A stretch of DNA of 64,000 nt, taken from an uncultured Clostridia bacterium (lineage in GTDB: Bacteria > Bacillota > Clostridia > TANB77 > CAG-508). Numbering within the stretch: position 1 is the first letter of the stretch; each line of letters opens with the position of its first letter. Positions 37,680 to 44,323 of this stretch are shown here, piece by piece. A program made the position numbers and the translations under genes. The stretch spans positions 68,757-132,756 of the forward strand of contig CANQGP010000005.1 in the NCBI GenBank assembly GCA_947623285.1. Direction: 5' to 3'. The notes below the pieces were generated by a model. It ran no database searches, was not told where the DNA came from, and saw only the letters and a list, made by a program, of their open reading frames with translations.

Positions 37680-38054
37680 TTAAATATTTTGATAATCTTT
37701 TACTTTTTTATAAGCATATGCAGCTGATATAGCTACTACAACTATTAATGCAACAGCTGGTAATGAATCTTCTATACCTGTGTCTGGTAAGTTTGTACTA
37801 TTGTATGAGCTTGTATTAGTTTTATTTGTTGAAGTTAATGTTGTATTTAGTGTAGTATTGTTTGTTCCTGTATTTGTAGTATTATTTGTTGTTGGACTTG
37901 TTGATGCACTTGTAGTTGTTGTTGGTGTTGATGAACTATTTACATCTAAAGTTTCCCATCCACTATCTGCTGCAAATACATTTGTTGCTATAAACACAAC
38001 TGCTACCATAATTATCATTACTAAAACTTTTTTTGCATTTGTTAATTTTTTCAT
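37680..38054 (-). CDS. small (124 aa) LPXTG cell-wall-anchored protein, T/N/S-rich
   Basis: Signal peptide MKKLTNAKKVLVMIIMVAVVFIATNVFA. Complete sorting signal: LPDTG + IEDSLPAVALIVVVAISAAYAY + KKVKDYQNI. GAGGAG RBS. Confidence 0.75.
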   Translation of the reverse strand: MKKLTNAKKVLVMIIMVAVVFIATNVFAADSGWETLDVNSSSTPTTTTSASTSPTTNNTTNTGTNNTTLNTTLTSTNKTNTSSYNSTNLPDTGIEDSLPAVALIVVVAISAAYAYKKVKDYQNI

Positions 38055-41789: not shown

Positions 41790-41865
41790 GCTTCTATAGC
41801 TCAGGTGGTAGAGTGCTACTCTGGTAAGGTAGAGGTCACGGGTTCAAGTCCCGTTAGAAGCCCCA
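41790..41865 (+). tRNA. tRNA-Thr (anticodon GGU), CCA encoded
   Basis: Manual cloverleaf: acceptor GCTTCTA/TAGAAGC, D arm GCTC-AGGTGGTA-GAGT, anticodon arm CTACT-CTGGTAA-GGTAG, T arm ACGGG-TTCAAGT-CCCGT. Confidence 0.9.
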
Positions 41866-41870
41866 CACAT

Positions 41871-41902
41871 AAAGGCAAAGTTTTATTAAAAACTTTGCCT
41901 TT
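41871..41902. terminator. bidirectional terminator (tRNA-Thr / small membrane protein gene)
   Basis: AAAGGCAAAGTT-N8-AACTTTGCCTTT: a 12-bp perfect stem with A/T-rich flanks. Confidence 0.75.
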
Positions 41903-41904
41903 AT

Positions 41905-42174
41905 TTATAATTCTAAGAATTTTAATATAAGTACAATTATTGTTGCAACAAAGAGGACTCGTTCTATGTCTCTCTTCTGCTCTGAGTCAGTTAAACTCAT
42001 TACAAAGATGCCTACCATCGCAATTGCTACAAAAGTTATTCTCCAAATGACACCTTCAGAACCCATAAGTAGGATAATGAATACCATTGTAATCATGAAT
42101 GATATTGACCAGTAACACATTAATCTCTCTTCTTGCTTTTCCTTACTTTTGGAATTTTTAGTGTCTTTCTTCAT
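41905..42174 (-). CDS. small membrane protein (89 aa, ~3 TM helices)
   Basis: AGGAG RBS, K/E-rich N-terminus, then hydrophobic helices. Confidence 0.55.
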   Translation of the reverse strand: MKKDTKNSKSKEKQEERLMCYWSISFMITMVFIILLMGSEGVIWRITFVAIAMVGIFVMSLTDSEQKRDIERVLFVATIIVLILKFLEL

Positions 42175-42297
42175 TCTAGTCTCCTAGCTCTTTAAATCTA
42201 ATTTTAGATTTTGAATCTTCAACCAATAACGTTCAGTATTATTATAATCTATTTTACATAATTTGTCAAATGAATTATACATATTTATTGAAAAAAC

Positions 42298-43230
42298 TTA
42301 TTTTCCAGTAATAGGCAAAACTTTATTTTCATATTTTTCTTGTATACTACCATAGCATTTTTCATATTTTTCAAGTATAGCATAATTTGTTAATTCTTTT
42401 CCTGCTATTCCTTCTGTAATGGATTCTGCATATACTTGTGCTTCAGCATCTATTTCAAAATTATTGATATCTTTTATTTTTTCTTTTGGTACAATAATTT
42501 TAAATTCTTCATTACCTTCAAATTTTTCTTTTTCTTGATTATTTTTATCTACCACTTTTATTCCTTCTAATATTTTACCTTCATTATTTTTCAAATATAT
42601 CTTATAATTTTTTATTTCACTTTCAGTTTCAATTTTATAAGTTTTTGATACATAATTTTTATCTTTTTCATCATCTTCCCAATAAAGATTTTGTTTTTTT
42701 ATCTCTAATTTATTTGTGGCTTTCATTTTATTTAAAGTTGATTTACCTTCTAAAATTTTATTTATTGCATTCAATATTCTTTGTCCTTTTTCATCTTTTG
42801 CAATATATTTTTCTAGCAAACCTTCTTGATAATTACAAAATATCGCTCCTTGTGTTGCCATATATGCTTCTTCATTGTTGATACATCCTAATTGAGCTGA
42901 GCTTTTAAAAGGATAGCCATTTGCTAAAATTTTAGAAAAATTTTCTCGTTTCAATTCTCCTAATATATCAATATTTCTACTGTCAGGAAAATAGTCCAGT
43001 GGTTCTTCTTCTAGATAGTATACTGGCATCTTTTCTCCATCAATATTATGGTATAAATAATTAAATTCTACTTCTTTTTCATCTTTTAATATTGATGTAC
43101 TCAATTTTTTTGCTTTATATACTTGGACTTTACCTTCATTATTGCTTATTGCACTTACTACATTTGAAAAAATTACAATATCCATTATTATTATCATTAA
43201 TATTAATAATACTTTTTTTAGACTTCTCAC
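42298..43230 (-). CDS. secreted thioester-domain (TED)-like paralogue lacking the thioester Cys, plus an extra ~110-aa C-terminal domain; ends ...LPITGK
   Basis: GTG start with GGAAGGAG RBS. Signal peptide. Aligns with the upstream TED protein (ANGYPFKSSAQLGCINNEEAYMATQGAIF vs VNGYPYKTIEELGCKNEQEAYKATQTAIY), but reads PVYYLEEE where the paralogue has PAYCLNEN. Confidence 0.7.
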   Translation of the reverse strand: MRSLKKVLLILMIIIMDIVIFSNVVSAISNNEGKVQVYKAKKLSTSILKDEKEVEFNYLYHNIDGEKMPVYYLEEEPLDYFPDSRNIDILGELKRENFSKILANGYPFKSSAQLGCINNEEAYMATQGAIFCNYQEGLLEKYIAKDEKGQRILNAINKILEGKSTLNKMKATNKLEIKKQNLYWEDDEKDKNYVSKTYKIETESEIKNYKIYLKNNEGKILEGIKVVDKNNQEKEKFEGNEEFKIIVPKEKIKDINNFEIDAEAQVYAESITEGIAGKELTNYAILEKYEKCYGSIQEKYENKVLPITGK

Positions 43231-43265
43231 TATCGCTCTCCTTCCATACTTTTGTACTATTCATT

Positions 43266-43964
43266 TTACATTCCAGTAACTGGCAACTTTATTGTTTCTG
43301 CTTTTACAGGCTCTTCTTTTTCAACAATTCCTGTTAATGCATAGTTTTGCAACTCTTCACTTGGAGCCTTACCAAAAAATACTTTATTTGAATTGTCTGG
43401 CATTTCTTTTGAATTGTCAGCATTTGTTATTATATTTTTTAAAGCTTCTAATGTCCTTACAGCCGCTTCATCATAACCTCCTATACCATTTTCTCTATAT
43501 AATGATAAAGGTGTATTGCTTAGATAACAATATATTGCTGTTTGTGTTGCCTTATATGCTTCTTGCTCATTTTTACATCCTAATTCTTCAATAGTTTTAT
43601 ATGGATATCCATTTACAATGACTCTCCAAAGTCCTAGAGCTGTTACATTATTTCCTTTTATATCCACATCTGTTATTTCATTAGTTATATCTACAGAGTA
43701 TGATTTATCTGCTGATACACCTTCTAAATTTTCATTTAAGCAATATGCTGGATATTCAACTCCATTATATTTATAATATACATGTTTTGTTTCCACATTT
43801 ATTTCAGCACATGTTAATAATACAGGCAAATCTTCTTTAGCATATAATTCAACTTTTGATTCTTCTGTTGATTGATTTGTTGTTGCTTCAACAGACATTG
43901 CAAATCCTGTTACTAATATTGCAACTATCGTAAGTATAACTAATAATATTTTACTTTTTCGCAT
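43266..43964 (-). CDS. secreted thioester-domain (TED) protein; ends ...LPVTGM
   Basis: 232 aa. Signal peptide. TED hallmarks are Y-C-L-N (Cys75, codon = complement of 43740-43742) and TQxAI(Y/W) (ATQTAIY). GGAGGG RBS. Confidence 0.75.
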   Translation of the reverse strand: MRKSKILLVILTIVAILVTGFAMSVEATTNQSTEESKVELYAKEDLPVLLTCAEINVETKHVYYKYNGVEYPAYCLNENLEGVSADKSYSVDITNEITDVDIKGNNVTALGLWRVIVNGYPYKTIEELGCKNEQEAYKATQTAIYCYLSNTPLSLYRENGIGGYDEAAVRTLEALKNIITNADNSKEMPDNSNKVFFGKAPSEELQNYALTGIVEKEEPVKAETIKLPVTGM

Positions 43965-44239: not shown

Positions 44240-44323
44240 TGGTGCGGATGAAGGGACTTGAACCCCCACGCCATTGGCACTGGTTCCTAAGACCAGCGCG
44301 TCTACCAATTCCGCCACATCCGC
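44240..44323 (-). tRNA. tRNA-Leu (anticodon UAG), type II, CCA encoded
   Basis: Reverse complement: GCGGATGTGGCGGAATTGGTAGACGCGCTGGTCTTAGGAACCAGTGCCAATGGCGTGGGGGTTCAAGTCCCTTCATCCGCACCA. Anticodon arm CTGGT-CTTAGGA-ACCAG, with a long variable arm. Confidence 0.9.

Follow-up and report, generated by a model that had tools for sequence, protein, structure and literature searches.

Tandem thioester-domain proteins of an uncultured Clostridia bacterium that end one residue after LPxTG, a candidate minimal sortase sorting signal

The tandem TED1 and TED2 genes

A 64-kb stretch of DNA from an uncultured Clostridia bacterium (contig CANQGP010000005.1; the whole stretch is called the window hereafter) carries two tandem genes, TED1 and TED2, whose products have the fold of thioester domains (TEDs) and terminate one residue after an LPxTG motif. 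The textbook sorting signal is tripartite, and its hydrophobic, charged tail behind the motif is regarded as necessary for keeping the substrate at the membrane. Both tail elements are missing here: there is no hydrophobic membrane-spanning segment and no basic tail, the last residue being Met in TED1 and a single Lys in TED2. I propose that the ending is a sortase sorting signal reduced to its catalytic minimum, and assign this reading a probability of roughly 0.6. The first-pass annotation of the window had singled out these two open reading frames (ORFs) for their endings, and their coordinates and translations were confirmed. The features of the locus are as follows:

43266..43964, minus strand: TED1 gene, ATG start, 232 aa; signal peptide, TED without the Class II beta-sandwich insert, linker of ~15 residues, C-terminus KLPVTGM, stop TAA (ORF, Pfam, AlphaFold2, Foldseek)
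43884..43964, minus strand: predicted signal peptide of TED1, residues 1-27 (MRKSKILLVILTIVAILVTGFAMSVEA, then TTNQ; by inspection)
43740..43742, minus strand: codon of Cys75 (YCLN), thioester cysteine of TED1 (alignment column and motif of PMC4450167)
43347..43349, minus strand: codon of Gln206 in the beta-strand motif LQNYA, thioester glutamine of TED1 (alignment column and motifs of PMC4450167 and PMC6194298)
43266..43286, minus strand: candidate minimal sorting signal of TED1, LPVTG-Met-TAA (sequence)
42298..43230, minus strand: TED2 gene, GTG start, 310 aa; signal peptide, Class II TED fold with insert, thioester residues lost, almost no linker, C-terminus VLPITGK, stop TAA (ORF, Pfam, AlphaFold2, Foldseek)
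43015..43017, minus strand: codon of Tyr72 of TED2, at the thioester Cys position (PVYYLEE; alignment columns)
42388..42390, minus strand: codon of Thr281 of TED2, at the thioester Gln position (ELTNYA; alignment column)
42424..42708, minus strand: Class II beta-sandwich insert of TED2, about residues 175-269 (gap in TED1 and model of TED2)
42298..42318, minus strand: candidate minimal sorting signal of TED2, LPITG-Lys-TAA (sequence)
44240..44323, minus strand: tRNA-Leu(TAG), upstream boundary of the two-gene unit, with fmt beyond (sequence scans)
41790..41865, plus strand: tRNA-Thr(GGT), downstream boundary (sequence scans)

TED1 and TED2 are separated by a spacer of 35 nt that contains the GGAGAG ribosome-binding site of TED2 (43236-43241, minus strand) and that showed no terminator-like site in a consensus scan; co-transcription of the pair is probable. 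TED2 is read in a different frame from TED1, and the proteins are 32% identical across 159 aa. The window has a G+C content of 28.7%, and the locus lies in a housekeeping stretch with priA-def-fmt on one side and thrS-ychF on the other. Six contigs from independent assemblies encode these same two proteins; three of the contigs were inspected.

Judged by inspection, both proteins start with a predicted signal peptide: Lys and Arg residues form its n-region, a hydrophobic core of ~18 residues comes next, and the site at residue 27 reads V-x-A or V-S-A; in TED1 the basic n-region and hydrophobic core lead to a V-E-A cleavage-type site. The predicted structures show an N-terminal helix and then a disordered segment in both proteins (for TED1, a helix at residues 2-21 followed by a low-confidence segment in the AlphaFold2 model).

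The identification of both proteins as TEDs was borne out by profiles and predicted structures alike. Each passed the Pfam TED model PF08341 (46.3 bits for TED1 and 34.7 bits for TED2; cut-off 22) and TIGR03934 (35.0 and 32.4 bits; cut-off 30.4), and AlphaFold2 models built with family alignments reached a pLDDT of 88.2 for TED1 and 89.4 for TED2. Foldseek matched the TED1 model with probability 1.00 to Cpa (4C0Z and 2XID), SfbI (5A0L), Clostridium perfringens CpTIE (5A0G), EfmTIE86 (6FWY), and BaTIE (6FWV); the TED2 model matched BaTIE 6FWV and EfmTIE86 6FWY at E-values of 1e-16 to 3e-15 over 272-296 columns.

Class II TEDs are defined by a beta-sandwich domain inserted in the TED fold (Miller et al., PMC6194298), the criterion used here being an inserted beta-sandwich domain of ~75 or more residues (slipknot). 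By sequence, the clade that includes TED1 and TED2 is assigned to Class II and related to Bacillus anthracis BaTIE, because the family profile matches BaTIE over TED, beta-sandwich insert, and CnaB domain alike (E 4e-54). The insert is present in TED2, where residues 175-269 are all-beta in the model, and in most family members; TED1 shows a 100-column alignment gap in its place, though it belongs to the same clade by sequence. TED1 shares this deletion with a short subgroup of 220-233 aa (P0002-P0008 and L010:5088-5753), which is Class II by sequence and appears in effect to have reverted to a compact, Class I-like TED. Genes of this short subgroup stand alone, without linkage to a sortase.

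The two residues that form the thioester are a Cys within a [YFL]C-hydrophobic-hydrophilic motif and a Gln on a C-terminal beta-strand (Walden et al., PMC4450167), the latter in a motif of the pattern hydrophobic-Q-hydrophilic-hydrophobic-hydrophobic (PMC4450167; PMC6194298); these two have been described as the sole universally conserved TED residues (PMC6194298). A TQxA glutamine, considered as a candidate thioester residue, was ruled out by the work of Walden et al. (PMC4450167). The first-pass annotation had described TED proteins as attaching through an internal Cys-Gln thioester; both residues are present in TED1 (YC75LN and LQ206NYA) and absent from TED2, where the same positions read Y-Y72-L-E and L-T281-N-Y-A. 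Across 74 aligned family members the Cys column is Cys in 68 and the Gln column is Gln in 72, with Thr there in TED2 alone and Tyr at the Cys position shared by TED2 and one homologue only (P0041). TED1 would be expected to form the thioester bond. TED2, because Tyr72 and Thr281 replace Cys and Gln, should be unable to do so and appears to be a fold-conserving, chemistry-dead paralogue with few relatives, which makes it a natural control for the role of the TED fold without the covalent bond.

Conservation of the LPxTG-X ending

A motif [K/R]LPxTG followed by exactly one residue ended ~95 of the 120 homologues listed for the TED1 search, and the homologues lacking it appear to be fragments truncated at the ends of contigs. 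When one genome per species (GTDB) was scanned, 140 relatives were obtained, of which 80 loci were retrieved; these come from 80 different assemblies, the window species not being among them, and the TED ORF carried the LPxTG-X ending in all 80. An exhaustive profile search of 1.84 billion cluster representatives then returned 1116 proteins with the threshold at E <= 0.001; tightened to E <= 1e-30, it delimits a clade of 333 50%-identity clusters. From this search 150 listed proteins were examined, 144 of them new representatives and six already included. The 144 split into 114 that are tail-less, 2 with canonical tails, 1 with the motif and a non-hydrophobic tail, and 27 without a motif (apparently fragments), so that 114 of the 117 listed distant representatives with a recognisable C-terminal motif are tail-less.

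The two canonical-tail representatives among those listed, P0224 (812 aa) and P0229 (1089 aa), have IPDTG or VPNTG followed by a transmembrane (TM) segment and a basic end. They mark the switch point between full and minimal signals and would be useful for dating the loss of the tail.

Over all 217 motif-bearing proteins, the tail measured one residue in 213, this last residue being M in 143, F in 20, Y in 17, K in 13, and C in 8, and the residue before the Leu of the motif was K or R in 180. The end of TED1 fits the family consensus [K/R]-L-P-[V/K/R]-T-G-[M/F/Y] exactly. TED2 has V before the motif, I at the x position, and K as the last residue, all of which are minority variants within the family. 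Even the short stand-alone proteins P0002-P0008, which are 41-60% identical overall, all end in KLP[VKL]TG[MN].

At the nucleotide level, the L, P, T, and G of the motif are invariant in 85 loci, each being encoded by 4-5 synonymous codons, next to 10-15 hypervariable linker positions with ~3 bits of entropy. Selection appears to act on the peptide and not on the DNA, because the residues are invariant with varied codons beside a variable linker. Conservation of the DNA itself, or an RNA element where the genes end, was considered and ruled out by the high synonymous codon diversity, and Rfam gave only the two flanking tRNAs.

Tails hidden behind read-through or a +1 or -1 frameshift were likewise ruled out by frame tests. 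As first noted, both stops are followed by further stops in frame. Read-through would extend TED1 by N-E before the next stop and TED2 by 37 codons without hydrophobic character, the best Kyte-Doolittle window of 15 residues reaching 0.11. A hydrophobic or basic tail was likewise absent from the +1 and -1 frames after TED1 and TED2. Across the 85 loci, the stops are TAA or TAG, read-through would run for a median of 6 codons, and no sorting-like tail was found in any frame, the few hydrophobic continuations being the signal peptide of the next gene. The LPxTG-X ending is a conserved norm of the family, far beyond chance, and not an error.

The sortase operon of relatives and the setting of the window

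A sortase ORF immediately precedes the TED, on the same strand, in 72 of the 80 reference loci, and in the gene calls of the loci inspected its end overlaps the TED start by 4 bp. The same sortase-TED arrangement occurs for P0010, a member of the group next closest to TED1. The operon occupies a conserved core region, with mraZ-rsmH and an HD protein on one side and genes for spoIVFA/spoIVFB-like M23 and M50 peptidases on the other. The related genomes were all assembled from metagenomes and belong to uncultured Clostridia of human, rabbit, goat, chicken, and mouse guts (for example Clostridium sp. CAG:389, Clostridium sp. 28_12, and UMGS1516/1673/1734), with a G+C content of 26-29% in the four loci for which it was computed and sporulation genes nearby.

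The operon sortases are 172-229 aa long, with an N-terminal hydrophobic anchor in 56 of 63, and the catalytic residues His111 (LAGHN), Cys172 (TLITC), and Arg180 are each conserved in 64 of 64. They matched the Pfam Sortase model at E-values of 1e-22 to 1e-24 and passed the general sortase models; their nearest solved structures are 4D70 (C. perfringens) and 2KW8, with E about 1e-11. Assignment to any of the sortase classes A-F or GN was ruled out, every class-specific score being far below its cut-off: 67-72 bits for class C (cut-off 160), 53-69 for class D (140-165), and 62-69 for class E (160), with no match to the class B model at E <= 0.1. Going by these profile scores, the operon sortase belongs to no curated class.

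A second cysteine, C182, was observed in the operon sortases within an 'RRC' sequence in 63 of 64 (L008:9423-10004 and 63 related ORFs). It lies ten residues past Cys172 beside the catalytic Arg. Sortases do not usually have such a cysteine, which might take part in a regulatory disulfide.

Within ~1.4 Mb of flanking DNA, the TEDs were the only ORFs with an LPxTG-X ending. The long family members have Pro/Glu/Lys-rich linkers before the motif that resemble wall-spanning segments. In ~20 of the 80 loci the TED is followed by 2-4 small secreted proteins (e.g. L008:11293-14515 and L006:11029-13230), which had no Pfam or NCBIfam match, no PDB sequence match for the one tested, and no LPxTG. These accessory proteins share a '[G/S/T]-Y-[A/T]-[K/R]-Y' motif right behind the N-terminal hydrophobic segment (GGYTYAKY, HISYARY, SFAKYIF), which may represent a dedicated signal-peptide or cleavage class loosely like that of TasA/SipW; kinship with TasA or camelysin was considered, but neither Pfam, NCBIfam, nor PDB sequences supported it. 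The accessory proteins might be partners of the TED or serve as its acceptors. A conserved tail-anchored protein of 111-113 aa (MESSDMKNMVVLKNLPSNMVEEAIIIFKE..., with a C-terminal TM segment) closes the operon in 24 loci, before the spoIVFA/spoIVFB-like M23 and M50 genes, examples being:

L008:14571-14912: tail-anchored protein, 111-113 aa
L004:11286-11621: tail-anchored protein, 111-113 aa
L006:13294-13635: tail-anchored protein, 111-113 aa

Some surface proteins of the lineage have canonical sorting signals. The window itself encodes a 124-aa Thr/Asn/Ser-rich, mucin-like protein (37680-38054, minus strand) that ends in LPDTG, a hydrophobic segment, and KKVKDYQNI, and a canonical substrate was also found in L041. 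Because of this protein's canonical signal, the window genome would seem to use ordinary sortase substrates too, and canonical and putative minimal signals coexist in it. Closer to the two genes, between tRNA-Thr and TED2, lies an ORF for an 89-aa hydrophobic membrane protein (41905-42174, minus strand) with its own perfect TTGACA-17-TATAAT promoter (42269..42241). It shares a bidirectional terminator with a 16-bp stem (41869-41904) with tRNA-Thr, is an annotated gene in other assemblies of the same organism, and had no family match above a curated cut-off.

A proposed minimal sorting signal and its alternatives

The proposal that TED1 and TED2 carry a minimal sortase sorting signal is based on the ORFs, their folds, the conservation of the motif, the linkage to a sortase in relatives, the intact catalytic triad of that sortase, and the lack of a hidden tail. 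Of the three fates suggested at first for the bare LPxTG end (release as a soluble tag, capture by a sortase after secretion, and joining to another protein), capture is favoured because a dedicated sortase gene precedes that of the TED in 72 of 80 related genomes; the window has no sortase of its own. Both proteins would be exported by Sec and their signal peptides removed. A membrane-anchored sortase would then cut between Thr and Gly, freeing the dipeptide Gly-Met from TED1 or Gly-Lys from TED2, and pass the C-terminal Thr to an amine; the likeliest acceptor would be a peptidoglycan precursor, giving wall-anchored display. Without a membrane-retention segment such capture would be kinetic, and a fraction of the protein would probably escape to the medium, as AbpA of oral streptococci does. 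The single residue after Gly may serve to shield the scissile Thr-Gly region from a free carboxylate: a carboxylate directly on the motif Gly may inhibit the sortase SrtA (PMC4723074), and this would be why exactly one extra residue is kept. Once displayed, TED1 with its Cys75-Gln206 pair would bind target amines covalently, and TED2 could act non-covalently only, e.g. as a structural or adaptor paralogue.

Several observations weigh against this proposal. Searching the 64-kb window by tblastn with three operon sortases found no sortase, and the accessory proteins and flanking genes of the relatives' locus gave no match in the window either; the mraZ-to-spoIVFA region, the site of the operon in relatives, does not lie inside the window. 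A cognate sortase would have to be encoded elsewhere in the genome, since there is none in these 64 kb. Short TED1-like genes stand alone in other genomes as well (L010, L091, and L092), as do a few long TED genes (L049, L069, L070, L079, and L086). Because these stand-alone copies keep the motif perfectly, they argue for a sortase encoded elsewhere that acts on them. Furthermore, the linker of TED1 is short and that of TED2 almost absent, so that wall-anchored copies of either might be buried in the wall and not exposed. Finally, the classical view is that substrates await sorting at the membrane because their hydrophobic and charged tail keeps them there (PMC4974636), which makes the efficiency of sorting without a tail uncertain.

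By analogy, the closest studied precedent and nearest functional analogue is the AbpA/SrtB pair of the oral streptococci S. parasanguinis and S. gordonii. AbpA ends in LPKTS-AVK with no hydrophobic segment or charged tail, its sorting signal was shown experimentally to be functional, the protein is found in the cell wall and the supernatant, and the dedicated sortase SrtB is encoded next to it (PMC4974636). Both systems have a motif with a few residues at most behind it and no membrane tail, and an adjoining sortase gene is present in 72 of the 80 relatives, though not in the 64-kb window. They differ in that AbpA has a 3-residue tail and Ser at P1', as opposed to a 1-residue tail and an invariant Gly here, and in gene order, with abpA preceding srtB and the sortase preceding its substrate in the TED loci, where no sortase matches class B at E <= 0.1. 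AbpA is a coiled-coil amylase binder restricted to oral streptococci, whereas TED1 and TED2 have the TED fold, are not homologues of AbpA, and belong to a family of hundreds of 50%-identity clusters in gut Clostridia.

Among TED adhesins, BaTIE (6FWV), EfmTIE86 (6FWY), and SaTIE (6FX6) are of the same sequence and structure class as the TED family (PMC6194298), with the YC-hydrophobic-hydrophilic, hydrophobic-Q, and NGYP.K motifs in common. BaTIE has LPATG and then a transmembrane domain, and all three are described as sortase-anchored (PMC6194298; PMC8092201). In contrast, the clade stops one residue past the Gly, with TED1 lacking the insert and TED2 lacking Cys and Gln. TIEpLS20, the conjugation adhesin of the Bacillus subtilis plasmid pLS20, is another TED adhesin of Class II without a canonical sorting signal: it has no LPXTG and functions without host sortases, its mode of surface attachment being an open question (PMC8092201), whereas in the TED family LPxTG is invariant and linked to a sortase. 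LPxTG-X is a third condition beside the TM-tailed LPATG of BaTIE and the absence of any sorting signal in TIEpLS20. That a tail is dispensable for cleavage and for incorporation into the wall from outside is known from engineered sortase tags (LPETGG, LPETG-amide), in which LPxTG with the Gly in amide linkage suffices; Staphylococcus aureus SrtA incorporates exogenous tail-less K(FITC)LPETG-amide into its wall in vivo (PMC4723074). Such tags are synthetic and require high substrate concentrations (micromolar to millimolar) with SrtA, whereas the present one would be a natural conserved tag with a co-evolved enzyme.

An alternative that I consider unlikely, though it has several points in its favour, is protein-to-protein ligation or pilus-like assembly, in which the C-terminal Thr of one subunit would be bonded to another protein, through either a Lys or the N-terminal amine. 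Applied to the window, this could place the thioester-active TED1 as a tip on a stalk or base of thioester-dead TED2, and in relatives it could join the TED onto the co-encoded accessory proteins. The tandem and probably co-transcribed arrangement, the very short linkers, and a TED2 that keeps the fold and LPxTG-X yet lost its thioester residues, as expected of a structural subunit, would all fit. The Streptococcus pyogenes pilus tip protein Cpa (Spy0125), whose structures are the top Foldseek matches of TED1, likewise combines a TED fold with a specialised sortase in the same locus. The TED of Cpa is of Class I, its sorting signal is complete and includes a membrane tail, and a class B-type pilus sortase links the protein to a backbone pilin; the TED family loci show no evident backbone pilin. 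The AbpA sortase also polymerises AbpA into ladders (PMC4974636).

The best class model for the operon sortases is that of class C, the pilin polymerases, but its score falls well short of the cut-off, and the weak match of the C-terminal CnaB domain to the SpaH/EbpB major-pilin model NF033902 (43.6 bits; cut-off 95) concerns the long members only. No pilin motif or acceptor Lys was identified, a pilin-motif Lys not having been specifically searched for, and NGYPYK, considered as a pilin-type Lys motif, was ruled out since BaTIE has this same general Class II TED motif. Most loci have just one LPxTG protein, without a second pilin, accessory proteins are limited to ~20 of the 80 loci, and Cys-less paralogues like TED2 are rare.

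A related possibility, similarly doubtful, is a distinct sortase system for freely soluble, translocated substrates, in which the LPxTG-Met tag is captured after secretion and ligated elsewhere than to the producer's nascent peptidoglycan, e.g. to another protein. The ligations conceivable under it are TED1 onto TED2 in the window and the TED onto the YAKY-motif accessory proteins in relatives. If true, it would amount to a covalent linker reactive at both ends, through a thioester and a sortase-made amide, and its enzymes should bind LPxTG much tighter than SrtA does.

Release as a purely soluble protein had also been suggested and is not the best reading; I regard it as improbable. The motif would then be hydrolysed by a sortase or left unused, and TED1 would diffuse and tag host or microbial amines covalently. 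Such release would account for the missing retention segment, the window without a sortase, and the stand-alone short-type genes of several genomes, and it has parallels in AbpA, which is largely found in the supernatant (PMC4974636), and in TIEpLS20, a TED adhesin of Class II whose function requires no sortase (PMC8092201). However, four positions of an unused motif would not remain invariant while synonymous codons turn over, including in the stand-alone P0002-P0008, nor would the length of the tail be expected to stay fixed at one residue in almost every motif-bearing protein, and a diffusible thioester protein gives the producer cell no adhesion. An artefact, i.e. a sequencing or assembly error, nonsense mutation, read-through, programmed frameshift, or alternative code that hides a normal tail, is suggested by nothing but the unusual appearance and the metagenomic origin of the genome, and is extremely improbable given identical proteins on the six contigs, the same ending in 80 different assemblies and hundreds of protein clusters, no downstream frame encoding a tail in the window or relatives, and neighbouring housekeeping genes that terminate normally.

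With a minimal sorting signal as the preferred reading, the system is a variant of sortase and substrate, with a reduced signal and an unclassified dedicated sortase, and not a new category. The open-access papers and preprints searched contained no earlier account of tail-less LPxTG thioester proteins, AbpA being the sole precedent. A whole clade of predicted covalent adhesins in abundant, uncultured gut Clostridia has dropped the tail and kept the chemical minimum, usually together with its own sortase. If confirmed, this would turn the single experimental precedent of AbpA/SrtB into a widespread strategy, and would raise the question of how capture works without membrane retention. It would also point to sortases that may handle soluble LPxTG-X efficiently and be useful for protein ligation, for which the weak substrate affinity of SrtA is a known limitation.

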